Shown here: positions 8,992 to 25,673 of the stretch, piece by piece | How positions within the stretch are numbered: position 1 is the first letter of the stretch | Layout of the letters: each line of letters begins with the position of its first letter | DNA from: a virus | Taxonomy: Duplodnaviria > Heunggongvirae > Uroviricota > Caudoviricetes | IMG/VR virus record: IMGVR_UViG_2537562194_000033 | DNA: 27,095 bases | Reading direction: 5' to 3' (one strand) | The notes under the pieces: generated by a model | Seen by the model: the letters and a program-made list of their open reading frames with translations, nothing else | The model's database searches: none | What the model was told of the DNA's origin: nothing | Position numbers and translations under genes: made by a program

Positions 8992-10044
8992 TTAGCTGTC
9001 GGCGAACTTCAGGCCAGTGACCATCGCGCACTTGCCATAGTCTTCAACGACATAAGCGTCATTGATGGACTGGTAGGTGGCGAGGCGGTTGTATTCCGGT
9101 TCGTCTTTCATCAGGCGACGCATTGAACCTTTCTGCCAGTAAATCGACAGGTTGTTGAACGAGGTGATCAGCATCGTTGCATCCGGGAAGAACGGCGCAA
9201 GGAACACGCCCAGCCCGCCAATGGTGCGCGATGACAGGATGAGCTGCCCGGCAAGTAATTCCGCATTGGGATTCTGGCCGCTGATGCTGTTCAGCACGGG
9301 CAGACGCAGCGAGTTAAACAGGTTGCGCCCCATAATCACCACGAGGTCGTCAGCTTCCTTGTGCCATTCATCCAGCAGGGATGAGCGTGCGTCCTGTACC
9401 AGTGCATCAGCGTTCGCATACTTACCCGCGTGCGCCACGGTGTTGTCCATGTTGCGGGAGGTCAGCGTCACGTCATTCATAACGCGCTCGCTGGCGTCGG
9501 TTCTGATGTGCTCCAGCCAGCCCACGTTAACGTCCTGAAGCAGCTTGTTGGTGCTGAAGTTGGACTCATCCGCGTGAGACGTGCCGTTGAAACCGATCAT
9601 GATGCGGTCAAGCGCCACCTGTCGGGCAATCTGTGCGCTGATGCGGGACTGAAAATCAGGATGTGCCGCCCAGGCATCAAGCTGCGGATATGAAATAAAC
9701 GTGTCGTAGTTCACCTGTTCGCACTGGTATTTGCGGTTTTTCAGATCAACCACGTTATTCGGGTTACGGCGTTTTGTGCCGTCATAACTGGTATTCGTGC
9801 GCGCAATCGGTCCTGTGGTATCCAGGAGGATTTTTTCGCCTTTCTGGTCGGTCACGCCGATCACGTTAATTCTTTTTGTAAATTCGGTGCTTTCCTTTGA
9901 GGCGTTTTCAAAACGCTGCTGCACCGAGGGTTCTACGGTAAATCGCGATACCAGCGCAGAAACCGGGATATTATTAAGCGACGCCTGCTGCGCCATATAG
10001 CAACCCAGCTTGTTGCGGGTAATATCTGACATCACCAGATTCAT
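8992..10044 (-). CDS. N: major capsid protein gpN
   Basis: 350 aa with conserved FTVEPSVQQ and C-terminal YVVEDYG blocks, as in the P2 N family as recalled. Confidence 0.9.
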   Translation of the reverse strand: MNLVMSDITRNKLGCYMAQQASLNNIPVSALVSRFTVEPSVQQRFENASKESTEFTKRINVIGVTDQKGEKILLDTTGPIARTNTSYDGTKRRNPNNVVDLKNRKYQCEQVNYDTFISYPQLDAWAAHPDFQSRISAQIARQVALDRIMIGFNGTSHADESNFSTNKLLQDVNVGWLEHIRTDASERVMNDVTLTSRNMDNTVAHAGKYANADALVQDARSSLLDEWHKEADDLVVIMGRNLFNSLRLPVLNSISGQNPNAELLAGQLILSSRTIGGLGVFLAPFFPDATMLITSFNNLSIYWQKGSMRRLMKDEPEYNRLATYQSINDAYVVEDYGKCAMVTGLKFADS

Positions 10045-11059: not shown

Positions 11060-12811
11060 ATGATTCAGGACGCTTTTGTGCGCCAGCGTGCGCGGCAACT
11101 TTACTGGCAGGGTTATCCGCCCGCAGAAATATCACGTCTGATGGGAATAAACCCGAACACGATTTATGCGTGGAAAAAACGCGACCAGTGGGATGAAACG
11201 CCACCCGTGCAGCGTGTCACGCAGTCCATCGATGCGCGCCTCATCCAGCTTACTGAAAAACAGAATAAAACAGGCGGTGATTTTAAGGAAATAGACCTGC
11301 TGACCCGGCAGCTTAAAAAGCTGCATGATGGCCATCCGGATGTGATGGCCGCAGGAAAGAAAGGCCGGGCGAAAAAACTCAAAAATCATTTCACGCCGGA
11401 ACAGATTGCCGCACTGCGGGAAAAAATCATCAACAGGCTGGAGTGGCATCAGCGGGGCTGGTTTGACTCCCTGACCCTTTGCAGGGAAGCCGGGATACGT
11501 AACAGGATGATCCTGAAATCCCGACAGATTGGGGCGACCTGGTATTTTGCACAGGAAGCACTGCTGATGGCGCTGCGTGACGATGTGGCGCAACCTTACC
11601 AGCGTAACCAGATTTTTTTGTCTGCGTCGCGTCGTCAGGCGTTCCAGTTTAAAAGCATTATTCAGAAGGCTGCGGCTGAAGTTGATGTGGAGCTGAAAGG
11701 GGGCGATAAAATCATCCTCTCCAATGGCGCAGAGCTGCATTTTCTCGGCACTTCTGCTGCGTCGGCACAGTCCTATACGGGCAATTTTTATTTTGATGAA
11801 TTTTTCTGGGTCAGTCGCTTTGCTGAACTGCGCAAGGTGGCTGGCGCTATGGCAACCCTCAGCGGACTGCGGCGCACCTACTTCTCCACGCCATCCACCG
11901 AAACGCACGAGGCATACGCCTACTGGAACGGCGACCGCTGGAACGAGAAAAAGGCCTTGCATAAACGCCAGCGTTTTTCTGTGGACTGGAAAACGCTGCA
12001 TAACGGGCTTATCTGCCCTGACCGGACGTGGCGGCAAATTGTCACGCTGGAAGATGTGGTTAATCACGGCTGGAAACACACCGATATCGACGAAATTCGT
12101 GATGAAAACACCGAAGACGAGTTCCTCAATCTCTATATGTGTGAGTTTGTCCGCGAAGGGGAATCGGCATTTAACCTGAATATCCTGATTGGCTGCGGTG
12201 TTGACGGATACGACGACTGGAAAGACTGGAAACCTTTTGCTCCCCGCCCGATGGGGAATCGTCCGGTATGGATTGGGTATGACGCAAACGGCAGCAGTGG
12301 CAACGGCGACAGCGGCGCTGTGTCTGTGGTGGTTCCTCCGGCTGTTCCTGGTGGCCGTTTTCGAACGGTGGAGACGCGACGCGTTCAGGGGCTGGAGTTT
12401 GAAGAACAGGCCAGAGTCATTGAAGAGTTCACGTGTCGCTACAACGTGGAACACATCGGCATTGATGTGACGGGCGGGAACGGGGAGGCTGTTTATCAGA
12501 TAGTGAAACGGTTTTTCCCTGCTGCTATTCCGTACACCTTCACGCTGTCATCAAAACGGTCGCTGGTACTGAAAATGCTGCAAATAATGCGTGCCGGGCG
12601 GTGGGAATACGATCGCGCCGAACGCGAGCTGGTCGCGGCCTTTAACGCCGTGCGTAAGGTGAAAACACCGGGCGGCTTTATCACTTACGAAACGGACCGC
12701 GCGAGGGGGATCAGCCACGGCGACCTTGCGTGGGCAACCATGCTTGCTGTCATTAACGAACCAATTGGCGGCGAAGGAGAAAACGAGCGTTTCACGGTTA
12801 TGGAGTTCTGA
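11060..12811 (+). CDS. P: terminase large (ATPase) subunit gpP
   Basis: 583 aa, ATG at 11060 after GGGGGAG. Contains a KSRQIGAT Walker-A-like motif. Size and position fit P2 gpP. Confidence 0.9.
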   Translation: MIQDAFVRQRARQLYWQGYPPAEISRLMGINPNTIYAWKKRDQWDETPPVQRVTQSIDARLIQLTEKQNKTGGDFKEIDLLTRQLKKLHDGHPDVMAAGKKGRAKKLKNHFTPEQIAALREKIINRLEWHQRGWFDSLTLCREAGIRNRMILKSRQIGATWYFAQEALLMALRDDVAQPYQRNQIFLSASRRQAFQFKSIIQKAAAEVDVELKGGDKIILSNGAELHFLGTSAASAQSYTGNFYFDEFFWVSRFAELRKVAGAMATLSGLRRTYFSTPSTETHEAYAYWNGDRWNEKKALHKRQRFSVDWKTLHNGLICPDRTWRQIVTLEDVVNHGWKHTDIDEIRDENTEDEFLNLYMCEFVREGESAFNLNILIGCGVDGYDDWKDWKPFAPRPMGNRPVWIGYDANGSSGNGDSGAVSVVVPPAVPGGRFRTVETRRVQGLEFEEQARVIEEFTCRYNVEHIGIDVTGGNGEAVYQIVKRFFPAAIPYTFTLSSKRSLVLKMLQIMRAGRWEYDRAERELVAAFNAVRKVKTPGGFITYETDRARGISHGDLAWATMLAVINEPIGGEGENERFTVMEF

Positions 12812-13857
12812 TGAGCAGAAAAAATAAAAAAGTGCGCATGAGTTCACGCATTGATCTCGCTGATGCGCTCAGGAAAGAATCGTCGCTCAGTGCATTCACT
12901 TTTGATGGTCCTTATCGCCTGACCGGGCATGATTTGCTGGACAATATGTACTGTGCTGATAACGGGCGGTGGTATGAAACCCCGGTGGACTGGTACGGTC
13001 TGGCAAGAGCCGCCCGGCAAACGTCCTGGCATCAGTCTGCGCTTTACTTTAAGCGCAATGTATTGCTCGGCTGCTATATTCCGCACCCGCTGCTTTCCCG
13101 GCAGGATTTCTCGGCGCTGGCGCTGGACTGGTTTGTGTTCGGTAACGCATTCCTTGAGCTTCGAAGCAATATGCTCGGCGAACCGCTTAAATTACGGCAC
13201 GCCCTGGCGAAATACATGCGACGCGGAAGCGATCTTGAATCATGGTGGTATGTGCAGGATGGCAAGGATGCGTTTCAGTTTCGCCCTGGCAAAGTGTGCC
13301 ACCTGATGAATCCGGATATTAACCAGGAAATCTACGGCATGCCGGAATATCTTGGCGCATTACTCTCGGCCAGCCTTTCTCATTCGGCGGACATGTTCAG
13401 AAAACTGTATTACGACAACGGATCCCACGCCGGGTGCATCATCTACATCGGTGCAGCGCAGGTAAACCGCGAAAGCATGGACTCCCTGAAAGAAACGTTA
13501 CAGGGTGCGCGTGGTGGTGGTGCATTTAAAAACGTGCTCATTCATGCGCCCAACGGGGGCAAAGAAGGTGTGCAAATTTTGCCGTTCCAGCAGATCACCG
13601 CAAAGGATGAGTTCATGAATGTTAAGGCGGCATCCCGTGATGATGTACTGGCTGCGCACCGCGTTCCGCCGCAACTGATGGGGGCGATGCCGGGTGAAAA
13701 AAGTGCGTTTGGTGATGTGGAGAAGGCCGCGCGGGTTTACGCAATTAACGAGCTGATGCCCGTCATGGAGGCCATGAAGCACATCAATGACTGGCTTGGC
13801 GAAGAGGTGATCCGCTTTAACCCTTACGCACTGTTAGATACCCAGCCCACATCCTGA
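12811..13857 (+). CDS. Q: portal protein gpQ
   Basis: 348 aa, ATG overlapping the P stop (TGATG). Last gene before the cos region, as in P2. Confidence 0.9.
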   Translation: MSRKNKKVRMSSRIDLADALRKESSLSAFTFDGPYRLTGHDLLDNMYCADNGRWYETPVDWYGLARAARQTSWHQSALYFKRNVLLGCYIPHPLLSRQDFSALALDWFVFGNAFLELRSNMLGEPLKLRHALAKYMRRGSDLESWWYVQDGKDAFQFRPGKVCHLMNPDINQEIYGMPEYLGALLSASLSHSADMFRKLYYDNGSHAGCIIYIGAAQVNRESMDSLKETLQGARGGGAFKNVLIHAPNGGKEGVQILPFQQITAKDEFMNVKAASRDDVLAAHRVPPQLMGAMPGEKSAFGDVEKAARVYAINELMPVMEAMKHINDWLGEEVIRFNPYALLDTQPTS

Positions 13858-14311
13858 CGCGCTTCGCTTGTCTGCTGCTTCGCCGGGGCATAAAAAATTT
13901 ATGCCCCGACTCTCCAGCTCCTGTATCAGTCAGATAATTTCACGACGCTTTCCTGCTTATTGCCATCATCGACGGTCAGACTCTTACGCAATCCCACTGC
14001 GCTGACTGCATGTTCTCGCCGCCTCAGTGCGATTTTGACGGCCTTATCTTCCACCCCATCAAATCAAAAGCCCTCACGTATTTTTCACGCTCAGCGTGAG
14101 AAATACGGCCATTCTGTCGTGTCGCTGCGACATCGTTAAGGGAACGCTATTTACCCCCTGAAACGCGGGCTGTTCCCCCGTCACCTGCGCACAGGAAAAA
14201 CGCGTTTTTTGTGCACGCACGGATCCTTGACGGATCCAGCCGCCATGCGGGCCGGAAGGGCAAAAAGTCGTTCAAAAAAATTGTGCAAATTTGTGCACTT
14301 TTGTGCAAAGA
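13858..14311. other. cos / packaging region (position inferred from gene order only)
   Basis: Non-coding stretch between the portal gene and the cargo operon. In P2 the cohesive ends lie just beyond Q. Contains a perfect palindrome GGGGCATAAA-AAA-TTTATGCCCC at 13884-13906 and a GGATCC-N5-GGATCC motif near 14222-14238. The exact cos cut site was not identified. Confidence 0.3.
14209..14307. repeat. TTGTGCA(A/C) direct repeats, three at exact 10-bp spacing plus one upstream
   Basis: TTGTGCA at 14209, 14281, 14291 and 14301, each preceded by a T or A tract. Confidence 0.6.
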
Positions 14312-14336
14312 AATGCCCCTCAAATTGAGGGGCATT
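14312..14336 (-). terminator. putative intrinsic terminator of the cargo operon
   Basis: AATGCCCCTCAA-A-TTGAGGGGCATT inverted repeat starting 14 nt after the protease stop, followed on the minus strand by TCTTTG. Confidence 0.5.
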
Positions 14337-14349
14337 ATGTCTTGAAGGA

Positions 14350-16575
14350 TTACGAACGAATAGGAATTGATGTTTGCGGTTGAATTGGCACGAGCACCTG
14401 ATTATAAGTACGTAAAATTTCGTTATACAGGTCTTGGTGCTTTGATGCCTTAATGGTAATTATAAGAGCATACTTGATTTTTTCTGCCTTATGGCTGGCT
14501 ATGCTTGCACCGGCCTCACGAGCGTTATAATGAATGTCAAATACAGGATTTTTTAGAGTTGAACCTAGCATGTTCTTCGAATTATGTAAGACGGTCTCCC
14601 ATTTGCCCATGTCAGAACGTCGCTCACTTTCAGTTGAATATTTGGCCAGTTCAAAGAATCCCTTGGTTTCAGCATTTTGTTTTCCGTCTTTGATTTTTGA
14701 ATCATTTGGCCGGAATGTCACTTCCAAACCAGCTTTTGTATAGGAAGCTGGGTCTTGTGGATCAGTGGTTGTTGCATAACAGAAAGTTGCCGCTAAGTTT
14801 ATTCTACCTTTCAAGCCACCTTCAGGTATTGGAAGAGAAGCGCGTAAGTATTTTCCTGGTTTCAATTCACCTTGGTAGACGATACGGGCAACACCATCAG
14901 GGCTGACTATAATGTCGTTCAAGTCTTCAGGCAGTTTTCCCCAGCCAACTTCTGTACAAGGATGATCAAGCTGTTTTGACGCATGAATTAACAAAGCTTT
15001 GATTGCTAGTAGGCTCAAATCGTTCCCTAAAATTGCCCGAACACCAACAGCTGCTCGTAAGGCGTAAGGAGAGGCAAAGCTTGTTCCTAGCTGGGGTATG
15101 ATTACAGGCTTCTTACCTTTACCTAAAACATGAAAGTACTCGTCTGTGTCACCACCAAACGCAACTAAATCCGGTTTCATCACGCCAGGACTTCTGCCTG
15201 GCCCAATGGCGCTATATGGTGCTCGTTTCCATTCCGTATCATTAACTGTATCACAAGCACCAACAGCAAGAGCATTAACGCAATCGGCTGGTACTTGAAT
15301 TCTTGCATTACCAGACTTGCGATCCATTTCTCCATTGTTGCCAACAGCAACAGTCATTAATGTTTCACCATCACTTAACAAATCATCAATAACGGAAGTC
15401 CATGCATGAACTTCCGTATCTTCAATTGGTAGGTCTGGACCTAAACTTAGATTGATAAACTGATACTGGCGAGACAACAATACCTCTTCAATAAAGCCCA
15501 AAGTTCGATATAGTTCCAGCGGATCTTCTTGGCAGGTCTTGTTGTCCAAAACTCTTAAGTTATCAATATAAGAGTATGGTCTTTTCGCTTCCGATTTATT
15601 ACTTATTGGTCCAAATAAAAAGGCTGAAGACACAGCTAAACCATGCTCTAAACCGTCTGGATCATCCTCTGCATGATCGTCCAAAACTCTATAGGATTTT
15701 AACCATGGCGATATAGCGTGCTCTGATGGTAAACCACCATCAAGAATCGCAACTTTTATTTCTGAAGATACGGGGCCCTCAGCAGGTAATTTACACTGAG
15801 CTAAAGGACCGTAGTTCCTTTGTATTGGTCTAATCCCACGCAATCTTGGAACCGGTCTTATTACTCGTACAAATGTAAATTTCGCAAGCTTACTAATAGT
15901 AATTCTATCGGCCTGGATTGGCACGAACCATAATGTACCAGCGGTAAAAGCTAATGAAGTATGTACTTTGATGTTCAAATTTGATGCAAACTGAACAAAT
16001 TGTTGCTGAACCAAGTCTTGTTCATTATCTGACAGTAAATGAACACCAACCTCAAAATACGAAGAATCCTGCTCACCAATGGTAATAATACGCTCTTCGG
16101 GTAAATAGGCATCGAACCGTTCTATGCGTGCAAAATCAATCGCTTCGTCAGAAAACTCTTTGAGTCCTGACACCCAATGAGGTAACTCTTTGAAGGATTC
16201 TCTTTTACCAGCAACAAACATTTGTGTCGTAGTTACTTCTGACACAGTAACTTTTCGCTTCCAGCTTTGAGGCGTAATTTTTACCGTCCTGCTGCCAATA
16301 GACGTTAACCCGGTAGACTTAAGCATTTTTGCAGGAAAAAAAGAGCGTGCAATATAGCTTGGATTCAACGTCAACTTAGCCACAGCATAATCATAAGGAC
16401 ATGCCTGACTGGGTAAATCATCAAAATTTTCTATAGTAGATGCAATTTGCGGCAATAAACGTTGTTTCGATTCGTAAAGAGAATAAACCTCAGCTTTTCC
16501 GGGCACTCTTTTAGGACCAGGAATATCGCTGGTTAATAATTCGCCGCGTCCAATCAGAAAATTAGTTTTCGCCAT
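14350..16575 (-). CDS. S8 subtilisin-like serine protease with uncharacterised N- and C-terminal domains (IetS-like?)
   Basis: 741 aa, ATG at 16575 with AGGAG 6 nt upstream. Catalytic motifs in canonical order: D279 (VAILDGG), H311 (LEHGLAV), N413 (VAVGNNGE), S499 (LGTSFASP). Flanked by ~265 aa N-terminal and ~200 aa C-terminal regions with no motif I recognise. AT-rich relative to the phage core. Confidence 0.85.
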   Translation of the reverse strand: MAKTNFLIGRGELLTSDIPGPKRVPGKAEVYSLYESKQRLLPQIASTIENFDDLPSQACPYDYAVAKLTLNPSYIARSFFPAKMLKSTGLTSIGSRTVKITPQSWKRKVTVSEVTTTQMFVAGKRESFKELPHWVSGLKEFSDEAIDFARIERFDAYLPEERIITIGEQDSSYFEVGVHLLSDNEQDLVQQQFVQFASNLNIKVHTSLAFTAGTLWFVPIQADRITISKLAKFTFVRVIRPVPRLRGIRPIQRNYGPLAQCKLPAEGPVSSEIKVAILDGGLPSEHAISPWLKSYRVLDDHAEDDPDGLEHGLAVSSAFLFGPISNKSEAKRPYSYIDNLRVLDNKTCQEDPLELYRTLGFIEEVLLSRQYQFINLSLGPDLPIEDTEVHAWTSVIDDLLSDGETLMTVAVGNNGEMDRKSGNARIQVPADCVNALAVGACDTVNDTEWKRAPYSAIGPGRSPGVMKPDLVAFGGDTDEYFHVLGKGKKPVIIPQLGTSFASPYALRAAVGVRAILGNDLSLLAIKALLIHASKQLDHPCTEVGWGKLPEDLNDIIVSPDGVARIVYQGELKPGKYLRASLPIPEGGLKGRINLAATFCYATTTDPQDPASYTKAGLEVTFRPNDSKIKDGKQNAETKGFFELAKYSTESERRSDMGKWETVLHNSKNMLGSTLKNPVFDIHYNAREAGASIASHKAEKIKYALIITIKASKHQDLYNEILRTYNQVLVPIQPQTSIPIRS

Positions 16576-16598
16576 ACATACTCCTTATCTATGCTGTA

Positions 16599-17720
16599 TT
16601 ACATTTTTTGACTGTATTTTCTAATTGTATCCCTACTGACTCCGGTTAAGTCTGATATGGCATGCTGGGATAATTTAGAATTTCTTTTTAGAGTAACTGC
16701 AATTTCTTTACGTTCATTCCTGTCTAATTCTGATAAACCATCTTTAATGAACGACCCAATCAACTCTTCATCTGAGGAAATACCTAAAGCGACCGAACGT
16801 CGGAATTTGTTGATAGAACGCTCAATATTACTAAAAGATTCATTTTTGAACATAATAGCCAGTAGATCTATCCAACGTGCAAAAATCGCGTAGTCGGGAC
16901 CCGAAAAGCGTTTAATTGCTTCTTTAATACTTTCGCTATCTGGCTTCTCAAAATTGAGCACTAAATCAAAACGTCTCCATAGTGCTGGATCAATCAACTC
17001 AGCGAAGTTAGTTGCAGCAAGTAGCAAACTAGAAGACGGCCATTCGTCAACCTCCTGGAGTATCACGGTAACAAGTCTTTTTAATTCTCCAACATCAGAA
17101 TCATCACTTCTCTTTTTGGCGATTGAATCAATTTCATCTAACAGAAGAACGCACGGCCCTTTCTTCGCAAAATCTAGAGCTGCCCGAAGGTTATTTCCGC
17201 TTTTGCCCAGATAGCTGCTCATTACTGCCGTTAAATCAAGAACGTAAAAAGGAACCCCTAATTTCTGAGCTAACCAGCTTGCCGTAAGTGTTTTACCGAC
17301 ACCCGGAGGGCCAACAAAAATGGCAGAGCGTGTTGGTTGTAAGCCGAGAGTCTTGAGGCGATCGATGTGCTTCCGCTCAAGAATAATTTGATCCAGTGAG
17401 TCTTCTATCTGACTGGACAGTAGAGGTTTGCTCACAATCTTTTCATTTGGTGCTTTAAGCAAGGTAAGCCTTGACTCCTCGTCCACAGGCATGGTTTGAG
17501 GCAGCGCTTGTTTTGGTGCGGTAACCTTACGCAGGCTTTGTGCAGGCTTTTGCGGTTTATTTCGTAGATAAAGATCAAGCTGCTCGGATAGAGCAGGCAT
17601 AGTTTCCCGATATTTACGCACCAAGCGAGCGACATATAACCGAACGTCATCATACTGTTCAGTTATTACCAGTCTAACTAGTTGGGCTAAATCTGACTGA
17701 ATACCACCTAAGTCGCCCAT
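16599..17720 (-). CDS. AAA+ ATPase with C-terminal HTH-like tail (IetA-like?)
   Basis: 373 aa, ATG at 17720 with AAGAGG upstream. Walker A GPPGVGKT (K143), Walker B VLLLDEID, sensor-1 AATN, RR at 249-250. The last ~25 aa (SKLSQHAISDLTGVSRDTIRKY) look like a helix-turn-helix. Stop is 23 nt before the protease start, so the two are an operon. Confidence 0.85.
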   Translation of the reverse strand: MGDLGGIQSDLAQLVRLVITEQYDDVRLYVARLVRKYRETMPALSEQLDLYLRNKPQKPAQSLRKVTAPKQALPQTMPVDEESRLTLLKAPNEKIVSKPLLSSQIEDSLDQIILERKHIDRLKTLGLQPTRSAIFVGPPGVGKTLTASWLAQKLGVPFYVLDLTAVMSSYLGKSGNNLRAALDFAKKGPCVLLLDEIDSIAKKRSDDSDVGELKRLVTVILQEVDEWPSSSLLLAATNFAELIDPALWRRFDLVLNFEKPDSESIKEAIKRFSGPDYAIFARWIDLLAIMFKNESFSNIERSINKFRRSVALGISSDEELIGSFIKDGLSELDRNERKEIAVTLKRNSKLSQHAISDLTGVSRDTIRKYSQKM

Positions 17721-17900
17721 CTTAACTGTAACCTCTTGATTTTAAGTGAATTGAAAAAGCATTTAACTGGACTATTTATAGTATTGCACTTTTTTATCAA
17801 ACAGGGAAGAGGAATACTATATGAAATTACAGTGTGCCCCATGGAACGTCCTTACCATGTCTAAACTCTACCTTCATACAATTGATGATTTCTTTCTTGG
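17721..17900 (-). promoter_or_regulatory. AT-rich intergenic region, probable promoter of the cargo operon
   Basis: 180-bp AT-rich spacer between the A stop and the ATPase start. It contains TTGATA and TATAAA hexamers on the minus strand, but their spacing is not canonical, so the promoter is not pinned down. Confidence 0.3.
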
Positions 17901-20666
17901 TTATTTTTTCTTCTCGCTATTGCCTTTGTCCTGCAACAGACCCGCCTTGTGACGTGCGCGTTCAGTGGTTTCATTGATTCTCTGTGCGTGCTCTGCGTCA
18001 CGGATGGCGCGCAGCATGTCAGAAAGCACGGTAACGGGGGGGTTCATGGTGTTCTGGTCCTGCTGAAGTGTGGATACCAGGCGTGCGGCGGCTTCGGGGT
18101 CTGATGCCCCCAGCTGTTCCAGATAGCTGGCGACCGGGTTATGGCGGATCTCCGTGCTGCTTACGCCGTGATTACGGCTCAGGCGCTGCCAGAGCTGCGT
18201 GATTCGGCTGTCCGGGCGGGTATCCGGTTTGCGTACAATTTCAAATCCCTGCGGTGCAATGATGCTGCCGTCAACGTACAGGCTGCCGCCCCGTAACAGG
18301 TGCTGCATCTGCTGTTCACCGATATGCAGGCCGAGAGATTCAGCAGATTCCCGCCATTCTTTAGCGAGTAATTCGTGGTTATCAGGCAAAGGCCGCTGCT
18401 GTTTGCGGCTCTGTGTCCAGCTCTGCATTTCATCACTGCTGTTTTTTGCCTGTTTGTCACGCAGCGAACGCATCAGCGCCCGGCGTTCGTGCCGTTTCAG
18501 TGAGCGCATCCATTCGTTCACTTCAACGCCGTCAGGGAGCTGCGGCCACGGTGCTGGCCGTTCTTCCGGCTGTTCTGCCCCGTTGTTGTCCGTTTCCTGT
18601 ACACGGGGACAGTTATTGCCACGAGTCCAAGGGGCGGCAGGGCCGCCCTGAAGGTCAAAACCATTTTCGCGGGCGCTGTCTTCCGTTTCCGGTTTACGTC
18701 TTACCAGTTTCCAGTTATCCGGATGCGTGCACACACGGGAGGATTCCCCGATGAGTGGTGACCAGATCCCGTAAATCTGTACGCTCTGTTCGCCGTAATC
18801 ATTCAGCTCATCTGCGAGGTCGTAGGCGGTGCGAATCAGGTAGTCTTTGCGTGGAACAAGTACGCCGCCCTGTTTTTCAATGTAGGAGGCAAAACACCCG
18901 GCATCAGCGGCAGCGAGTACCGCATCCATTGCATCATCCTTCAGCCGTTGCGGGCCTTCCGGGTTGCGTGCCATCTGGCTGGCAAGGCGGCGGAGTTCAC
19001 GCCATACCTGACGGGAGGGGATGCCAAAGAACTGGAACTGGCGGACCCGATGAAGACGCGCCCAGCCAATGGCGCGCTCCACGCTCTCGGCCATTGATTT
19101 TCCGGTTTCGTGGTCAACGCGTGGCTTGCCCGTTTTCGGGTCGATGCCATCTACGGCGCGGCTGTCCAGGTTTTTTCCGATGTAGGTCGCGATATAGCTG
19201 GTTGGTGTGCCTTTTGAGCCGTCGACATACTCCGCCTTAAAGCGCGGAGTAATATCATCGCCCAGTTCGTGACGATCTTCCTGAATGGCAATATCGCGGG
19301 TGATGGCCACGATGCTGTCGATTTCTTCCGGATGAGCAAAGACCATCATATGCCAGTGCACGGTGCCGTCATGGTGAGGCTCCACCGTGCGGATGCCATA
19401 CCAGCGCAGGCCGTCGCGGTTCAGTTTTTTGCGGACCGCCGCAAAAAACGTGTTAACCAGGTAATCGCTGGAGTCGCGCATGGTGGCCCCGTTCCATTTG
19501 GGGTTCGGATGACCGTTCTCCGTTGTTGCGTGGTATTTTGACGGGCAGGTGACAGTCAGAAACACCGCTTTGTCACCACGGGCTTCGGCCAGAAGTTCCA
19601 GCCCCTTCATGGTGGCCATCATTTCTGCCTTACGGTGAACCGGGTTACTTACTCCCGCGTAATACACTGTCTCGAGATCAATCGTGAACCCGTCTTCATT
19701 TTCCAGCATGAAACTTTTCAGGAAATCGCGTGTTTTCTCGCGCTGTGCGCGAAACTCGCTTAACGCGTCCTGGCTCAGATAGGGCGATGTTTTTCTGGAA
19801 ACCAGACAGGCGGCGCGGAGTTGTTCTTCTCTCCACTCGCAACGTAACAGCCACAGTTTGCGTTTCCACCATTCCGCACAGGTCAGGCGAAGGATTGCGC
19901 CCGGCAGCAGCTCCGTGTCCGGTTCGTTCCTCCGGTCTTTGTCTGTTGTCAGTGCGTCATAATGTGGAGGCATGGCGTGCAGGTGTAACGCCATGCGGGC
20001 CAGCATCTGATACGCCTTCAGCGTTACATCCATGGTCAGTTCGCCATCGGTCGCGCCAAAGCCATCGCAGAGTTTTTCGAAGGTGCTGCTGAACATCGCC
20101 GCCGTCATGGTGGCCAGTGTCTGTATCTGGTGTTTGTTGAGCTGCGGCAGGTAAAGCAAATCGTCCAGGCGTTCGCGTCCGGCAAGGGAGCGATAACCCT
20201 GTGTCAGCCAGCGGTGATCGGTGCGCTCCAGACGTTCGAATATTTTGCGCAGGTTTCCGCGCGCGTAGCGTTCAGCCTGCCAGCTCTTTTTGCCTTTCTG
20301 ACGATCGGCTTCCTGTTTTTTGCGCAGGAAGGAGAGGTGGCGAATAAGCGGATCGCGCAGATAGGACGGCAGCAGGCGCAGCGAGGCCATGGCTTCATCC
20401 ACCGCGCCGCGTGCCTGTTTTCTGGCATCTCCTGCCAGTGTGATGGTTTTGTCCTGTTTTTCCTGTGCGTCCAGGCTTTTATTAATCAGGTTGCCCAGCG
20501 GCGTTGCGGAGAACGCCGCATCAGCCATTTCCTGGCGGCGCTCGTTCTCTACCCGGTAGGCATCCAGCCAGGAGGAAAGCGCGGATTCAGGAGCGGGGAT
20601 CCCCGTTCCTTCACGCCCCACTGCGTGGCGCGGTTGTTGCCAGTCCCTGATGTACTCTGCCGTCAT
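17901..20666 (-). CDS. A: replication initiation endonuclease gpA (rolling-circle initiator)
   Basis: 921 aa. Contains HHDGTVHWHMMVFA (HUH-like metal site) and YIATYIGK (catalytic Tyr region), as expected for the P2 A family. Confidence 0.9.
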   Translation of the reverse strand: MTAEYIRDWQQPRHAVGREGTGIPAPESALSSWLDAYRVENERRQEMADAAFSATPLGNLINKSLDAQEKQDKTITLAGDARKQARGAVDEAMASLRLLPSYLRDPLIRHLSFLRKKQEADRQKGKKSWQAERYARGNLRKIFERLERTDHRWLTQGYRSLAGRERLDDLLYLPQLNKHQIQTLATMTAAMFSSTFEKLCDGFGATDGELTMDVTLKAYQMLARMALHLHAMPPHYDALTTDKDRRNEPDTELLPGAILRLTCAEWWKRKLWLLRCEWREEQLRAACLVSRKTSPYLSQDALSEFRAQREKTRDFLKSFMLENEDGFTIDLETVYYAGVSNPVHRKAEMMATMKGLELLAEARGDKAVFLTVTCPSKYHATTENGHPNPKWNGATMRDSSDYLVNTFFAAVRKKLNRDGLRWYGIRTVEPHHDGTVHWHMMVFAHPEEIDSIVAITRDIAIQEDRHELGDDITPRFKAEYVDGSKGTPTSYIATYIGKNLDSRAVDGIDPKTGKPRVDHETGKSMAESVERAIGWARLHRVRQFQFFGIPSRQVWRELRRLASQMARNPEGPQRLKDDAMDAVLAAADAGCFASYIEKQGGVLVPRKDYLIRTAYDLADELNDYGEQSVQIYGIWSPLIGESSRVCTHPDNWKLVRRKPETEDSARENGFDLQGGPAAPWTRGNNCPRVQETDNNGAEQPEERPAPWPQLPDGVEVNEWMRSLKRHERRALMRSLRDKQAKNSSDEMQSWTQSRKQQRPLPDNHELLAKEWRESAESLGLHIGEQQMQHLLRGGSLYVDGSIIAPQGFEIVRKPDTRPDSRITQLWQRLSRNHGVSSTEIRHNPVASYLEQLGASDPEAAARLVSTLQQDQNTMNPPVTVLSDMLRAIRDAEHAQRINETTERARHKAGLLQDKGNSEKKK

Positions 20667-20672
20667 AGTGAT

Positions 20673-21038
20673 TTACTTCGTCATGCCATTCAGGGTGTCG
20701 CGGCAGACTGTAGCCAGCCGCTGAATTTCCAGCACGGTGTCTTCTGTGTCGGCATGGCGATGTGTGATGCGGATGCTGTCGGCAATCACATCGACGATTG
20801 CAGAGGATGGGCGCTGGTAAATGCCAATAACGGACGGGGTGCCACCTTCAATGCGGTAAAGCCTGTAATTTCCCTCGTGGCTGTCAATCATGTAGCGACC
20901 ATCAATAACAATCTTTCCGTCAGCGAGCTGCGGTACAGGCAGGGATTTCAGGTACATGTCATAACGATCACGCACGCGAGCGGCAAGATCACGTTCTGTG
21001 TTGAGCAGGTATTCAAGAAAGTCGTTGGCGAGAATCAT
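20673..21038 (-). CDS. hypothetical early-operon protein
   Basis: 121 aa, ATG at 21038, stop 7 nt before the A start. Position matches the small orfs upstream of A in P2-like phages. Confidence 0.6.
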   Translation of the reverse strand: MILANDFLEYLLNTERDLAARVRDRYDMYLKSLPVPQLADGKIVIDGRYMIDSHEGNYRLYRIEGGTPSVIGIYQRPSSAIVDVIADSIRITHRHADTEDTVLEIQRLATVCRDTLNGMTK

Positions 21039-21110
21039 TGCGGCAATCCTCTTGTTACAGATGTGCGAAGGCCTCCCGCCGCAAGGTGCAGGAAAGGCCC
21101 GGAACAGGAG

Positions 21111-21341
21111 TTAATGGAGTTTGTTTTGCTGCTGGATGAGCTGTTGAAGCTCGTGCAGATCATCCGCCAGATAGCTGAAAACAGAGGCGGAATAAATGTT
21201 TGATAGTGCGTGGCTGCGCTCATGCAGCATATTGATGTGCATGATTTGCGCGACGCGTGATGCGCGGGAAAGTCTGCGGTTGATTTCAGTCTGGATGTGA
21301 CGACGCTCCGCGATAGCGCGGTGTGGTTTGCGGTTTGCCAT
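21111..21341 (-). CDS. hypothetical basic protein (Arg/His-rich)
   Basis: 76 aa, ATG at 21341 with GGGG upstream. Function unknown. Confidence 0.5.
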   Translation of the reverse strand: MANRKPHRAIAERRHIQTEINRRLSRASRVAQIMHINMLHERSHALSNIYSASVFSYLADDLHELQQLIQQQNKLH

Positions 21342-21443
21342 GGTGTGGCCCCTTGTGTAGTAAGTTGTGAAAACTCACCATCCAGAGCTGCGAAACTGTG
21401 GGGGGCGAGACGTACGAGGTTCGCAGTACCGGCTACACAAGAA

Positions 21444-21462
21444 CCCGGCCCGACCGAAGTCG
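21444..21462 (-). ncRNA. UUCG-tetraloop hairpin inside a structured non-coding island
   Basis: On the transcribed (minus) strand, CCGAC-UUCG-GUCGG with flanking GG/CC extension, sitting in a 320-bp non-coding gap (21342-21663) rich in dyad symmetry. Confidence 0.35.
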
Positions 21463-21530
21463 GCCCCGTACGCCCCGCCATAATTCTGACGCGAAAAAAA
21501 CGTGGCAATACAGTACGCACAAAAAAACCG

Positions 21531-21551
21531 CTGGCGCGGTTGTGCGCTTGT
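21531..21551 (-). terminator. putative intrinsic terminator/attenuator within the early operon
   Basis: On the minus strand, ACCGC-GCCA-GCGGT followed by a 7-U run (the A run at 21531-21537 on the plus strand). The stem is short. Confidence 0.35.
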
Positions 21552-21663
21552 GTAGTCAGCAGGCTGCGAAACCCGGCACCCGTTTTGTGAGGTGCAGCGG
21601 AAATGTAACCTGACTGATTGCGGCATGGCAAGCGGTTTTTTTGTGTGTGCATGTTCTGGTTTC

Positions 21664-22205: not shown

Positions 22206-22405
22206 CTGCGTGACTCCTGTACCTGTCGGATAAGGTTCACCCGCACCACATTCGTGGCGCAGAAGTAAGTGCCGTCAGTGAGATAGATGTGATGTGCATC
22301 CTTTTCTGAACGGTGTTTGTCGATTGTGGTAATCAGGCGTTCGTCGACTTCGTATTCACGCCCTCTGGAGGTAAAACGAACGACAGGAAAATGCTTAATT
22401 GCCAT
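22202..22405 (-). CDS. hypothetical early protein
   Basis: 67 aa, ATG at 22405, in the translationally coupled chain. Confidence 0.5.
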   Translation of the reverse strand: MAIKHFPVVRFTSRGREYEVDERLITTIDKHRSEKDAHHIYLTDGTYFCATNVVRVNLIRQVQESRR

Positions 22406-22490
22406 TACGCCTCCTTGGCGTGTGCGAATACCTCCGCGAATGCGGATTGTTTTACATTTTCTTATTTAATCTGTGGTTTTATTTGCTCTG

Positions 22491-22604
22491 TTATTCGCCA
22501 GTGAAAAAGCGTTCAATCTTTTTTATTGAATGAATAATTCGCATAATCCCAATAGCGCAGGCCACCGAAATAATCAGAACAAGCCATGAGATAAATATAC
22601 TCAT
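22491..22604 (-). CDS. small hydrophobic peptide (37 aa), not in ORF track
   Basis: ATG at 22604 overlaps the stop of the upstream gene (ATGA). Translation MSIFISWLVLIISVACAIGIMRIIHSIKKIERFFTGE is a single transmembrane helix with a basic tail. TAA at 22493-22491. Confidence 0.45.
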   Translation of the reverse strand: MSIFISWLVLIISVACAIGIMRIIHSIKKIERFFTGE

Positions 22605-22843
22605 GCGATATTCCCCAGCTTATACGGTTCAATATGTTCCCCGCACTCTGCGGCACAGATCAGCTCGGAAAGTTCGTTAAGTGCATCCAGATCATCAGCG
22701 TAAAAAGCCACGTCATACAGACTTCGGATTGCTCTGGTCAATGAGTCACGGGCCGCACGTTCAGCATGAGCGCCTGATGCACTTAAGCGAAAATAAAAAC
22801 GCTCAAGTGCTTTGTTAATGAGAGTTTTATATTCTTTGCCCAT
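22601..22843 (-). CDS. hypothetical early protein
   Basis: 80 aa from ATG at 22843 (the track start at 22846 is a GTG). Confidence 0.55.
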   Translation of the reverse strand: MGKEYKTLINKALERFYFRLSASGAHAERAARDSLTRAIRSLYDVAFYADDLDALNELSELICAAECGEHIEPYKLGNIA

Positions 22844-22854
22844 CACAACGCCCC

Positions 22855-23142
22855 TTAATCTGCTTTCTGTATTTCAGCTTCTGAATCCATACAAATAATT
22901 TCGATATAGGGTTCATCGCCATTAACCTGGCGTGCCTTTTCAGCTTCGCTAATGATTTCTCGTACGGTCTGGTACGGAAGTTCCACAAGCAGTCGCGTGC
23001 CGTTCAGATAAACGTAAGTGGCTTCGTCGGCTCCGTTTTTACCCGCCGGAGTTACTCCGTCAATAGCGGATGCACGTAATAACAGTTCACCGCGAAAATC
23101 AATAAAACGGATAAATACACCTTGTGCATGGTCTTTGGTCAT
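22855..23142 (-). CDS. hypothetical early protein
   Basis: Start set to ATG at 23142 (MTKDHAQGVF...), 95 aa, with AGGTG upstream. The longer track ORF from 23256 would overlap the upstream gene by about 100 nt. Confidence 0.55.
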   Translation of the reverse strand: MTKDHAQGVFIRFIDFRGELLLRASAIDGVTPAGKNGADEATYVYLNGTRLLVELPYQTVREIISEAEKARQVNGDEPYIEIICMDSEAEIQKAD

Positions 23143-23152
23143 AAAGCACCTG

Positions 23153-23494
23153 TTATAAATCAGCCTGTTTAATAAAACTTTGCCCGCGAAGCAGACGATC
23201 AACCGTGCGAAGTGCTTCGTATAATGTGAAATCCTGCCCGAACTGATTGTCGCCACTGCTTAGAGCAAAAATGCGGTTTCCGGTAAACGGATTGCGTGGG
23301 CATTTGTGGATCACGATTCCAGCTTTCTCAATCAGCCAGGCATGCTCGCCGATTTGTTTTACTGGGTAGCCATCCGGCGTTGCGTGTGTATCACTCAGGC
23401 TGTAGCGGATGTTGCTGCGTGATGCACTGGTAGCAAAACGGTTAGCGTGGCGTTCTGCACCATTGCGAAAGCGTGAATTACGTTGCTGTTTCAT
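23153..23494 (-). CDS. hypothetical early protein
   Basis: 113 aa, ATG at 23494. Confidence 0.55.
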   Translation of the reverse strand: MKQQRNSRFRNGAERHANRFATSASRSNIRYSLSDTHATPDGYPVKQIGEHAWLIEKAGIVIHKCPRNPFTGNRIFALSSGDNQFGQDFTLYEALRTVDRLLRGQSFIKQADL

Positions 23495-23495
23495 G

Positions 23496-23603
23496 TTAAA
23501 GACTCTGTACAGATTTAATTATTCCGGCATAGAGGCCGAACTCAAAATATTTGCGATTAAATCGCATCGCATTGTTTTCACGTTTTGCGGACTGCTGGTT
23601 CAT
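23496..23603 (-). CDS. possible small protein (35 aa), not in ORF track
   Basis: ATG at 23603 with GGAGG 9 nt upstream. The stop is 1 nt before the next gene's ATG. Translation MNQQSAKRENNAMRFNRKYFEFGLYAGIIKSVQSL. Confidence 0.35.
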   Translation of the reverse strand: MNQQSAKRENNAMRFNRKYFEFGLYAGIIKSVQSL

Positions 23604-23746
23604 TTTCGTTTGCCTCCGCACATGAGAATTGCGCCGCTTAAGAGGTAACCGAAGTTAATTGATAGTATTACAATTAACATAAGGTCCAATTTGTCCATGC
23701 CACACATAATTACCCTCATTGCAGTAGTTGTGGGTTGTCAGGTTTC

Positions 23747-23953
23747 TCACCCGATAAACCAGATAACAAACGCTATAAACATCGCCCCAATAGCTGCCGG
23801 GAAAAGTCCTTTGGTATAAGCGGCGATATATTCAATGCTGAGTTCAATAAAGCGTTCTTCATGTCCCGTTAACTTGCGAAACAAATAGATCTCTATTACG
23901 CCTATCTCAATAAAAACAAGGGTCAGAATGGCGCTGATGATATGGCTGGTCAT
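23747..23953 (-). CDS. small membrane protein (2 predicted transmembrane helices)
   Basis: 68 aa, ATG at 23953, 6 nt after the cox stop. Strongly hydrophobic (ILTLVFIEIGVIEIYLF, AAIGAMFIAFVIWFIG). Confidence 0.6.
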   Translation of the reverse strand: MTSHIISAILTLVFIEIGVIEIYLFRKLTGHEERFIELSIEYIAAYTKGLFPAAIGAMFIAFVIWFIG

Positions 23954-23959
23954 TTATGA

Positions 23960-24149
23960 CTAAAGTCCCAGCCACAACAACCATGCGTCGCGGCGTTCTT
24001 TCGGTTGCTCAAAAAACGCTTTGCGCATGCCTTCGTTAAATGCTGGCAGATATACCCAGTTTTCTGATGCACGCGTCTTTACTGAACCTGGTTTCACAAA
24101 GTCAATTGTCGGTAGCTTTGCTGCGTCAATCATGGTTCTGACTGTGGAT
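23960..24149 (-). pseudogene. cox: cox (excisionase/early repressor) 3' fragment, separated from its 5' part by an IS insertion
   Basis: Joining 25560-25460 to 24149-23960 and removing one copy of the GAT duplication gives an intact 95-aa ORF: MSESELGGFIQVAPYPLEAVPYQLFAKMIGRKESTVRTMIDAAKLPTIDFVKPGSVKTRASENWVYLPAFNEGMRKAFFEQPKERRDAWLLWLGL. It resembles P2 Cox as recalled. Confidence 0.8.
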
Positions 24150-24203
24150 TGAACCGCCCCGGAAATCCTGGAGACTAAACTCCCTGAGAAAGAGGTAAAC
24201 AGG

Positions 24204-24530
24204 ATGACTAAAAATACTCGTTTTTCCCCCGAAGTCCGTCAGCGGGCGATTCGTATGGTTCTGGAAAGTCAGGATGAATATGACTCACAGTGGGCGGCAA
24301 TTTGTTCCATTGCCCCAAAGATTGGCTGTACGCCGGAGACTCTGCGTGTCTGGGTTCGCCAGCATGAGCGGGATACCGGGGGCGGTGATGGTGGGCTCAC
24401 CAGCGCTGAACGTCAGCGTCTGAAAGAGCTGGAACGTGAAAATCGTGAACTGCGCCGCAGTAACGATATCCTTCGCCAGGCTTCCGCTTATTTTGCGAAG
24501 GCGGAGTTCGACCGCCTCTGGAAAAAATGA
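24204..24530 (+). CDS. IS3-family transposase OrfA (HTH and leucine-zipper part)
   Basis: 108 aa. The -1 frame relationship to orfB at the A6 run (24522-24527) fits the programmed frameshift typical of IS3-family elements. Confidence 0.9.
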
Positions 24531-25417
24531 TGCCACTGCTGGATAAGCTGCGTGAGCAGTACGGGGTCGGACCGGTATGCAGCGAACTGCATATTGCCCC
24601 GTCAACGTATTACCATTGTCAGCAACAGCGACATCATCCGGATAAACGCAGTGCCCGTGCGCAGCACGACGACTGGCTGAAGAGAGAGATACAGCGCGTA
24701 TACGATGAAAATCATCAGGTGTACGGTGTGCGTAAAGTCTGGCGTCAGTTGTTACGGGAAGGAATCAGGGTGGCCAGATGTACAGTGGCACGTCTCATGG
24801 CGGTTATGGGACTTGCCGGTGTTCTCCGGGGTAAAAAGGTCCGTACGACCATCAGCCGGAAAGCCGTTGCCGCAGGCGACCGCGTAAACCGTCAGTTCGT
24901 GGCAGAACGACCTGACCAGCTGTGGGTGGCTGATTTTACTTACGTCAGCACATGGCAGGGCTTCGTCTATGTGGCGTTTATCATTGATGTGTTTGCCGGA
25001 TACATCGTGGGGTGGCGGGTCTCATCGTCTATGGAAACGACATTCGTGCTGGATGCGCTGGAGCAGGCGTTGTGGGCCCGTCGTCCGTCTGGCACCATCC
25101 ATCACAGCGATAAAGGCTCTCAGTATGTGTCACTGGCCTATACGGAGCGACTAAAAGAAGCCGGATTACTGGCATCAACAGGGAGTACAGGCGACTCGTA
25201 TGACAACGCGATGGCTGAGAGCATCAATGGTCTTTACAAAGCGGAGGTAATACACCGTAAGAGCTGGAAAAACCGTGCAGAAGTGGAACTGGCCACACTA
25301 ACGTGGGTGGACTGGTATAACAATCGACGATTGCTGGGAAGGCTGGGCCATACTCCTCCGGCAGAAGCAGAAAAAGCTTATTATGCTTCCATCGGAAACG
25401 ATGATCTGGCAGCCTGA
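24527..25417 (+). CDS. IS3-family transposase OrfB (DDE catalytic domain)
   Basis: 296 aa with an rve-type integrase core (WVADFTYV...HSDKGSQY...[14 protein letters not shown]). Confidence 0.9.
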
Positions 25418-25560: not shown

Positions 25561-25673
25561 TGTGGTAATCTCCCTAATTCGTTCGAATGGCTCAAAATGG
25601 CTTATATCGGCTTATTTGAGTGTTTTTATGTTTGTGCCCGATGTGGCATGTTGCGATGGAGGATATGCCCGAT
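25561..25673. promoter_or_regulatory. early control region between cox and C (face-to-face promoters and operator repeats)
   Basis: 113-bp gap between divergently oriented cox and C. Contains 15-bp direct repeats TGCCCGAT(G/A)TGGCAT at 25635-25649 and 25666-25680, plus shorter AATGGCT and GGCTTAT direct repeats. P2 C repressor is known to bind direct repeats. Promoter hexamers were not assigned. Confidence 0.5.

Follow-up and report, generated by a model that had tools for sequence, protein, structure and literature searches.

The AT-rich segment that lies next to cos, between the portal gene Q and the replication gene A of a P2-like prophage, is very probably an ietAS defence cassette that recombination has placed in the variable A-Q slot. 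The window, i.e. the whole stretch of 27,095 nucleotides that was analysed (IMG/VR record IMGVR_UViG_2537562194_000033), is a P88-like prophage (Xuanwuvirus, P2-like) by its sequence, and the segment in question occupies positions 14312 to 17900. Profile matches identify its cargo as IetAS, a known anti-phage defence and toxin-antitoxin system. The occurrence of IetAS in this hotspot is already known and catalogued, and the present case is an ordinary one. The features referred to below are the following:

12811..13857, plus strand: portal gene Q (Pfam Phage_portal, 4e-18; 97% identical to P88), left conserved flank of the hotspot
14165..14190, no strand: probable cos core GGGCTGTTCCCCCGTCACCTGCGC, resembling the P2 cohesive end
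14281..14307, plus strand: three TTGTGCA repeats with 10-nt spacing, the last conserved bases ahead of the variable segment
14312..14336, minus strand: predicted hairpin terminator of ietAS, 11-bp stem AAUGCCCCUCA/UGAGGGGCAUU followed by UCUUUG (from folding)
14350..16575, minus strand: ietS, 741-aa protease of the S8 subtilase family, predicted toxin/effector (PADLOC, Pfam)
16576..16598, minus strand: 23-nt intergenic spacer with an AAGGAG Shine-Dalgarno motif for ietS (read from the sequence)
16599..17720, minus strand: ietA, 373-aa classic-clade AAA+ ATPase, predicted antitoxin/regulator (PADLOC, Pfam)
17721..17900, minus strand: 180-nt spacer upstream of ietA, 33% GC, with an AAGAGG Shine-Dalgarno motif (read from the sequence)
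17901..17929, minus strand: 3' end of A (final 9 codons plus stop), inside the non-homologous, apparently imported segment
17901..20666, minus strand: replication gene A (Pfam Phage_GPA, 3e-131; 96.5% identical to P88 from 17930), right conserved flank

Base composition and cargo exchange

An earlier note on this DNA had put the two cargo genes and their upstream spacer at about 40% GC, against about 55% in the flanking phage genes. The exact count agrees: the 3589 nt of the island have 41.2% GC, compared to 53.8% in the remainder of the window (binomial z = -15), and flanks of equal length have 53.1% (left) and 56.7% (right). Of the 60-nt samples quoted in support, those at 15961 (33.3%) and 9001 (55.0%) were read correctly, but the one at 16441 has 38.3% rather than 40%. 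A sliding-window calculation, which the same note had proposed as a check, places the minimum on the island: among all windows of 3589 nt, the lowest in GC starts at 14333 (41.0%) and nearly coincides with it, while successive non-overlapping windows of that size give 0.52, 0.58, 0.57, 0.53, 0.41, 0.57 and 0.50. The drop is also seen at third codon positions in both cargo genes (GC3 of 0.32 in ietS and 0.36 in ietA vs 0.60-0.69 in A, Q, P, O and N). When two change points are fitted by likelihood to 12000-20600, the island is delimited at 14262-17921, with a log-likelihood gain of 97 and support ranges of 14251-14278 on the left and 17905-17986 on the right. On the left, the fitted limit precedes the homology break described below by about 50 nt because the conserved, cos-proximal repeat region is AT-rich too. 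Milder low-GC zones exist elsewhere, at 22250-24250 (0.42-0.48) and at both ends of the window; thus low GC is not unique to 14312-17900, although no other zone is as deep or as sharply bounded. The example shows that compositional scanning finds cassettes of this kind reliably in P2-like prophages.

Alignment of the A-to-Q interval with related phages, the other check that had been proposed, shows conserved flanks and varying cargo. Sixteen deposited records of P88-like phages match the window at 93-97% identity in gene A and in the Q-cos flank, and the island is present in none of the 16, which excludes the case of the same two genes, with matching composition, being carried by all P88-like phages. 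The slot of these relatives holds ParM/ParR-like genes, DUF4760 and others; the ParM/ParR-like cargo has 51-55% GC. The cos flank was found in 1142 of 5426 complete E. coli genomes and an identical island in 43 of the 5426, in every instance adjoining the replication endonuclease gene A; among the carriers are strains of O111:H8, STEC and porcine ETEC. Three further ietAS alleles, all of 38-42% GC, occupy the A-Q slot of other P2-like lineages; in the CFSAN051542 prophage, the backbone of which is P2-like but unrelated, the cassette at this position is an 85% identical copy. None of the deposited phage genomes carries the window's allele; the nearest phage-borne IetS, that of Enterobacter phage phiT5282H, is 38% identical. 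Full-length homologues with an adjacent ATPase gene, 54% and 41% identical, are found on Agrobacterium and Rhizobium plasmids.

The claim of horizontal exchange is thus upheld by the shared flanks, the absence of the genes from relatives and the 85% copy in an unrelated backbone. One could suppose instead that low GC is native to phage genes at this position, for instance through AT-richness near cos, and the AT-rich 50 nt on the cos side (14262-14311) and the 22250-24250 zone are in keeping with this. Such a reading is highly improbable, being refuted by the relatives that have nearly identical flanks and lack ietA and ietS altogether, by the phage-like GC of their ParM/ParR-like cargo, by the 85% copy, and by a GC3 drop of about 30 points, which is a codon-level and not merely an intergenic effect. 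We therefore retain import: the cassette would have been brought in by recombination with another element and would have replaced the ParM/ParR-like and other cargo of the close relatives.

The slot itself is well documented. The gpA-gpQ hotspot of P2-like phages comprises 18,150 loci in 1,650 arrangements and is dominated by defence systems (Rousset et al. 2022, PMC9122126); in Table S5 of that study, the entry "Peptidase_S8 / AAA ... ietAS (Gao et al, 2020)" ranks seventh, with 400 loci, and WP_000502620, which is the IetA of the window, is listed. The same interval has been called "moron position 1" (PMC3573123). The type example is the tin-old region of P2, which likewise lies between A and Q next to cos and is likewise AT-rich (tin 33% and old 35% GC vs 53% for A). 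The window shares with this hotspot the pattern of conserved flanks and swapped cargo, and differs from P2 in its backbone, which is P88-like (Xuanwuvirus) rather than Peduovirus. In addition, its cassette abuts A, the final 9 codons of which it overwrites; in most P88-like relatives, by contrast, ParM/ParR-like genes remain beside A. The case adds little that is new beyond a clean, well-delimited instance of an interchangeable anti-phage cassette next to cos in P2-like prophages.

Borders of the cassette

The left flank (13858-14311) includes a cos-like core, and 14165-14190 is probably the cos core proper, as judged by eye from comparison with P2 cosR, GGCGAGGCGGGGAAAGCAC (reverse complement; NC_001895). 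This core and the TTGTGCA repeats are also kept in the CFSAN051542 prophage; a fourth copy of the repeat lies at 14209. The alignments with P88, PV468777 and PhiR44_2 all diverge directly after the repeats, and across the 16 phage records homology ends between 14307 and 14314. Enterobacter phage phiT5282H, judged by its alignment alone, is 75% identical over 14164-14314 and likewise stops aligning at 14314. Small ORFs of the cos region, such as that of 62 aa at 14147-14335, were treated as not real, since they lie over conserved non-coding cos DNA and nothing in PHROG matches them.

The earlier note had the island bounded exactly by the stop codon of A and by a hairpin. The hairpin, at 14312-14336, holds. 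The right limit does not: A has its stop codon at 17901-17903, but homology with P88, PV468777, PhiR44_2 and E2348/69 restarts only at 17930, 27 nt into the 3' end of the gene, and therefore the last 9 codons of A presumably arrived with the cassette. The A protein has 921 residues here vs 940 in P88. The joints would accordingly lie at 14314/14315, just past the repeats, and at 17929/17930. Junctions placed at the level of the base may help to dissect the mechanism of exchange at this hotspot.

In the 16 P88-like records and in the unrelated CFSAN051542 prophage, the variable DNA begins within a few bases past the three TTGTGCA repeats, and on the cos side each cargo ends with its own, different GC-rich hairpin. 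In P2, repeats of the ATGCA type are found at the equivalent position. These observations raise the idea that exchange is directed by sequence features of the cos-side border, and not by plain homologous recombination between the flanks: the event may be nucleated by the TTGTGCA array or by a protein that binds there, for example terminase. Were this true, repeat-nucleated exchange would fill a gap noted in a 2026 preprint on P2 and P4 hotspots, according to which the mechanism has yet to be elucidated. We regard the idea as quite unlikely; more probably, the repeats belong to the packaging signal and simply mark the point at which selection stops tolerating change.

Within the island, searches with Rfam (at gathering thresholds) and a tRNA scan returned no match, so that the island is not tRNA-associated and is free of known RNA elements.

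The ietA and ietS genes and their expression

The IetS protein of the window (RefSeq WP_001140704, "S8 family peptidase") matches the PADLOC profile for IetS, PDLC02197, at 1e-51, with residues 36-726 on positions 38-733 of 749, and Pfam Peptidase_S8 at 2.5e-19. Alignment with subtilisin E shows an intact catalytic set, D279, H311, N413 (oxyanion) and S499, which is invariant over four alleles of 39-92% identity. IetA (WP_000502620, "AAA family ATPase") matches PADLOC PDLC02196 at 1e-77 (residues 9-372 on positions 5-370 of 374) and Pfam AAA at 2.6e-30. It carries a Walker A motif, GPPGVGKT (K143), a Walker B motif, LLLDEID (D195 E196), sensor-1 N238 and an arginine pair, R249 R250; K143 and D195-E196 are invariant among the four alleles compared. 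The presence of the protease triad and the Walker motifs predicts a catalytically competent pair.

Neither IetA nor IetS has a solved structure, and the structural matches are restricted to generic subtilisins (1e-4) and to Cdc48/p97-type AAA+ modules; the chains closest to IetA are those of Cdc48/p97/VAT (3e-47). An unfoldase mode of action for IetA is not secure, however, since the pore-loop tyrosine (SYLGK) is replaced by a leucine in the E2348/69 allele.

The pair has the broad layout of IetAS (Gao et al. 2020; originally ietA/ietS of Agrobacterium pTiC58), with the two genes co-oriented, the ATPase gene upstream of the protease gene, a 23-nt gap and a subtilase of about 740 aa. It shares with the reference family near-full-length profile matches, the catalytic triad and the Walker motifs, and differs from it by a helix-turn-helix at the C-terminus of IetA (about residues 351-369). 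With the more common allele in E. coli, the E2348/69 type, to which the ietAS annotated in Rousset 2022 corresponds, the window's allele shares about 39-40% identity. The scores are far below the NCBIfam equivalog cut-offs, 223 bits vs 510 for IteA_antiphage (NF042959) and 135 vs 900 for IteS_antiphage (NF042956). This means that the pair belongs to a divergent branch of the family and is not an equivalog of the reference pair, so that its function is extrapolated; it also accounts for the generic RefSeq names.

The short spacer between the genes, with its Shine-Dalgarno motif, implies an operon organisation. The two minus-strand genes would be transcribed together, starting in the AT-rich spacer ahead of ietA, which is presumably the promoter region of the cassette, and ending at the 14312-14336 hairpin. 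The fold of 14290-14352 has a free energy of -25.3 kcal/mol (z = -6.2), with none of 200 shuffles equally stable, and the hairpin ends 13 nt past the stop codon of ietS. It was missed by a strict terminator scan because its tail has only 4 T in 8. At this position, each of the relatives has a different hairpin.

A moron, strictly defined, is an independent transcription unit inside a prophage, with its own promoter and terminator. The earlier description of the island as a moron cassette stands as regards exchange and the possession of a hairpin, predicted to serve as the terminator that a moron requires; the promoter part of the definition fares less well, as matches are only at chance level. 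A consensus scan of 13800-18100 gave 8 sites vs 7.0 expected, none better than 9 of 12. The top candidate before ietA, TTGATA-18-AATAGT, was set aside, its -35 element (TTGATA) not being conserved in the 85% allele. As no hairpin separates ietA from the A stop codon, transcription of the early operon may also run through into the cassette. The spacer contains an imperfect inverted repeat of 15 nt (17777-17791/17807-17821); the 85% allele keeps its arms but has a different loop. This candidate operator may help to dissect the regulation of IetAS.

Proposed role of the pair

The mechanism outlined here for the window's IetAS is drawn from work on homologues. In the lysogen, the AAA+ ATPase IetA would act as an antitoxin, using ATP to hold the subtilase IetS harmless. 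A superinfecting phage would make a trigger protein or disturb IetA, and the proteolytic activity of IetS would then be released, leading to growth stop or death before the phage cycle is completed. Such abortive infection would protect the clonal population of lysogens and therefore the prophage. A protease toxin restrained by an ATPase and acting via abortive infection is the best-supported view of IetAS. The original description of IetAS was of a toxin-antitoxin pair, with a protease as toxin and an ATPase as antitoxin, that stabilises plasmids; protease activity is needed for defence, and ietA mutants could not be built (PMC13069673). The B. cereus ietAS is toxic when yosG of phage SPbeta is co-expressed and behaves as an abortive infection system (10.1101/2022.08.27.505566). 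The ECOR52 ietAS alone gives limited protection only (Wu et al., 10.1101/2022.08.21.504612), and the primers used to clone it have no match in the window or in any of the three other alleles compared. No published experiments on the window's allele were found in the literature; its anti-phage protection is predicted from the phenotypes of other alleles, and neutralisation of the toxin by the ATPase from homologues.

Two known systems are close to the pair in design. The ietHAS system (Liu-DS4) shares the IetA and IetS modules with the window, and in it protease activity is required and ietA could not be mutated; its third gene, ietH, encoding a SNF2-family helicase, is absent from the window, where the interval from A to the terminator holds two genes only. 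The other, SgiAT (S026/S025) of Salmonella Genomic Island 1, is an ATPase and protease toxin-antitoxin pair on a mobile element, likened here to the window's pair by its description; it is found on an integrative mobilisable island and has been studied for maintenance, not phage defence.

The history of the family suggests that ietAS could be mainly an addiction module, stabilising the prophage by post-segregational killing rather than fighting phages. IetAS stabilises the Ti plasmid, SgiAT, an IetA/IetS homologue, promotes maintenance of its island, and full-length IetAS homologues are common on large plasmids; moreover, the slot of close relatives holds ParM/ParR-like partition genes of phage-like GC (55%), another maintenance function. 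Yet an integrated prophage is copied along with the chromosome, so that segregational stabilisation matters less to it than to a plasmid, the A-Q slot contains mostly defence systems, and homologous ietAS systems gave anti-phage phenotypes. An addiction role as the principal one is thus rather unlikely, although maintenance and defence are not exclusive.

The S8 domain of IetS and the presence of O111:H8, STEC and porcine ETEC strains among the carriers might also evoke a secreted, subtilase-type virulence factor acquired by lysogenic conversion, comparable to SubAB, a cytotoxin found in Shiga-toxigenic E. coli. This is scarcely credible: the N-terminus of IetS (MAKTNFLIGRGELLTSDIPGPKR...) lacks a hydrophobic signal sequence, the 741-aa protein has large extra N- and C-terminal domains and is matched over its full length by IetS profiles, its best subtilisin matches are weak (1e-4), and its partner gene encodes a cytoplasmic AAA+ ATPase, not a B-subunit. 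As a predicted defence system, the divergent IetAS allele carried by the 43 complete E. coli genomes, O111 STEC and porcine ETEC among them, could affect host range in phage therapy.

The AT-rich cassette between genes A and Q

The window is a P2-family prophage, carried in reversed orientation relative to the usual P2 map.

Genes and hairpin in and around the island (coordinates, strand, feature)
11060-12811, plus strand, terminase gene P
12811-13857, plus strand, portal gene Q
14312-14336, minus strand, hairpin with an 11-bp stem, ending 13 nt past the ietS stop
14350-16575, minus strand, 741-aa ORF, ietS (PADLOC IetS, Pfam Peptidase_S8)
16599-17720, minus strand, 373-aa ORF, ietA (PADLOC IetA, Pfam AAA)
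17901-20666, minus strand, gene A, 921 aa, Phage_GPA domain

The earlier note had proposed that 14312-17900 is a low-GC island, and this is borne out. Indeed, its GC content is 41.2%, compared to 53.8% in the remainder of the window (binomial z = -15) and 53.1% and 56.7% in flanks of equal length. Among all windows of the island's length, the GC minimum starts at 14333, and a two-change-point fit places the island at 14262-17921. The three 60-nt GC samples quoted in that note were correct to within 2 points. The drop is present at the codon level, GC3 being 0.32 and 0.36 in the cargo genes versus 0.60-0.69 in A, Q, P, O and N.

The island was also said to be bounded exactly by A and the cos region, which holds to within about 30 nt. 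In BLAST comparisons, the P88-like phages (Xuanwuvirus: P88, PhiR44_2, PV468777 and others) are 94-98% identical to the window up to 14307-14314 and again from 17930, with no match between 14314 and 17930. The left break falls at the end of the conserved cos-proximal region, directly after three TTGTGCA repeats (14281-14307), and there all four aligned phages diverge from one another. The right break is not exact, since it lies 27 nt within the 3' end of A; the A stop codon and the last 9 codons therefore belong to the imported segment. The A protein has 921 residues in the window and 940 in P88. The hairpin announced at the end of the island was found at 14312-14336. The segment 14290-14352 folds at -25.3 kcal/mol (z = -6.2); a strict terminator scan did not call the hairpin because its T-tract is short.

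Comparison of the A-Q interval among relatives, with its conserved flanks and differing cargo, supports the proposal of a horizontally exchanged cassette. The island is absent from all 16 deposited P88-like phages, in which ParM/ParR-like genes adjoin A and various small genes, DUF4760 and others come next. The cos flank is found in 1142 of 5426 complete E. coli genomes and the island (at least 99% identity) in 43, in every case chromosomal and adjacent to the replication endonuclease gene. In CFSAN051542, an 85%-identical copy occupies the same position in an unrelated P2-like backbone. It covers ietS (from its stop codon), ietA and 123 nt of the DNA upstream of ietA, and has, on its cos side, a terminator hairpin of its own, unlike that of the window. 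Two further alleles (about 40% protein identity) sit in the same slot, after ParM/ParR in E2348/69 and after DinI-like genes in EC102, where ietA is frameshifted (5673-6755 of the fetched locus). All four ietAS alleles have 38-42% GC irrespective of backbone, compared to 55% for the ParM/ParR genes. It is thus very probable that this ietAS cassette entered the A-Q hotspot by exchange.

Both site and cargo are already known. The cos-adjacent gpA-gpQ locus of P2-like phages was described as a hotspot for anti-phage systems, comprising 18,150 loci in 1,650 arrangements (Rousset et al. 2022, PMC9122126). In Table S5B of that paper, "Peptidase_S8 | AAA ... ietAS (Gao et al, 2020)" holds rank 7 (400 loci), and Table S5A includes "AAA/HTH_50 + Peptidase_S8, WP_000502620 + ..."; RefSeq annotates the protein WP_000502620 on DNA 100% identical to the island. 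A-Q had earlier been named "moron position 1" (PMC3573123). P2 tin-old, the type example of hotspot cargo, is AT-rich like the island (33% and 35% GC versus 53% for P2 A). The phenomenon is therefore not new, and its cargo here, IetAS in the P2 A-Q hotspot, has been catalogued.

Decayed ietAS copies also occur in the hotspot. In strain E06, ietS is interrupted by an IS5 (ISKpn26) insertion, and in strain 7-27 20A the copy spans only 41% of the island. Together with EC102, these are a small counter-example to the claim, made in a 2026 preprint, that no pseudogenisation accompanies the exchange of hotspot defences.

The ietAS operon and its possible role

The 373-aa protein matches PADLOC IetA over nearly its full length (1e-77) and the 741-aa protein matches PADLOC IetS over residues 36-726 (1e-51). 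IetS lacks a signal sequence; alignment with subtilisin E shows the residues D279, H311, N413 and S499, which are the same in four E. coli alleles (39-92% identity). IetA carries Walker A (K143), Walker B (D195 E196), sensor-1 and the arginine pair typical of classic-clade AAA+ proteins. Its closest solved structures are Cdc48/p97/VAT modules, and its C-terminus is a helix-turn-helix. A spacer of 23 nt separates the two genes, and each is preceded by a good Shine-Dalgarno sequence. As read from the sequence, the window thus holds the ietAS operon anatomy, intact catalytic motifs and a terminator hairpin. The narrow NCBI equivalog models IteA/IteS_antiphage are matched at 223 bits (cut-off 510) and 135 bits (cut-off 900); by sequence comparison, this ietAS is a divergent branch of the family. 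Full-length homologues with a neighbouring ATPase gene are found on Agrobacterium and Rhizobium plasmids (54% and 41% identity), which agrees with the Ti-plasmid origin of the Iet name.

A consensus scan revealed no demonstrable promoter for ietAS. In the spacer upstream of ietA (33% GC), two blocks are conserved in both the window and the 85%-identical allele; together they make up an imperfect inverted repeat of 15 nt (17777-17791 / 17807-17821, TATAGTATTGCACTT ... AAGAGGAATACTATA). The arms are kept in that allele (9430-9474 of the fetched CFSAN051542 locus) and the loop differs. We infer that this repeat is a candidate operator for the helix-turn-helix of IetA, an arrangement that would resemble that of many toxin-antitoxin operons. 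No hairpin separates the A stop from ietA, and read-through from the early operon upon induction is therefore also possible.

IetAS was originally a plasmid-stabilising toxin-antitoxin pair, the protease being the toxin and the ATPase the antitoxin; in a helicase-containing variant, defence needs the protease activity and an ietA mutant could not be made (PMC13069673). A B. cereus ietAS becomes toxic upon co-expression of yosG of phage SPbeta and shows abortive-infection behaviour (10.1101/2022.08.27.505566). The ietAS of E. coli ECOR52 gives limited protection alone and acts in synergy with Zorya II (10.1101/2022.08.21.504612). Two papers describe the mechanism of IetAS as unknown. By analogy, IetA would use ATP to hold IetS in check in the lysogen, a phage cue would free IetS, and proteolysis by the freed enzyme would arrest the cell. 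We give this abortive-infection toxin-antitoxin mechanism an even chance of being valid for the allele of the window. The main alternative, that ietAS serves prophage addiction, is compatible with defence and is mildly favoured by the partition genes that relatives keep in the same slot.

Repeats and a second variable spot near cos

TTGTGCA occurs in four copies at 14209-14215 and 14281-14307, three of them in tandem with 10-nt spacing at the exact cos-side edge of the variable segment. Window-wide, the motif is not enriched (8 copies versus 6.1 expected). P88-like phages keep the repeats, as does the unrelated CFSAN051542 prophage, and Enterobacter phage phiT5282H aligns over the same stretch at 75%, as known from alignment rather than from inspection of the repeats. 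P2 has ATGCA-type repeats at the equivalent position, between cos and old. The simplest explanation is that the array is probably part of the packaging signal.

On the opposite side of cos, the relatives PV468777 and PhiR44_2 have an insert of 635 bp (47% GC; 1534-2168 of both fetched loci; window junction 13833-13853) that separates the Q stop from the cos region. This insert contains a hypothetical ORF of 525 nt and is missing from the window and from P88; its site is a second, small variable spot.

Other features of the prophage

An IS3-family insertion sequence (24204-25417; orfA HTH_Tnp_1, 24204-24530; orfB rve, 24527-25417), with an Rfam ALIL frameshift pseudoknot at 24485-24601, lies between a cox-like gene (23747-23953, minus strand) and an HTH repressor gene (25620-25994). 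The switch region between lysis and lysogeny is thereby interrupted, and the prophage may be locked or defective. E. coli 95NR1 has this insertion too, under the annotation IS1203. Rfam C4 antisense RNA (21398-21485, minus strand, 77 bits) and isrK (21521-21595, minus strand, 64 bits) both fall within a mechanical ORF (21035-21652) that RefSeq leaves unannotated, which hints at an immunity or antirepressor module based on antisense RNA, of the P1/P7 type, in a P2-like phage.

Window 1479-1847 has an inverted counterpart, 89% identical, in the 95NR1 prophage, where it adjoins a recombinase gene; this is consistent with an invertible tail-fibre segment. Elsewhere the two prophages are 99.6% identical, with no mismatches from 13500 to 18500 and patches of 19 in 18500-19000 (inside A) and 23 in 4500-5000; this is local mosaicism typical of P2-like prophage recombination. 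An Rfam match to IS009 RNA lies at 1-170 on the minus strand.
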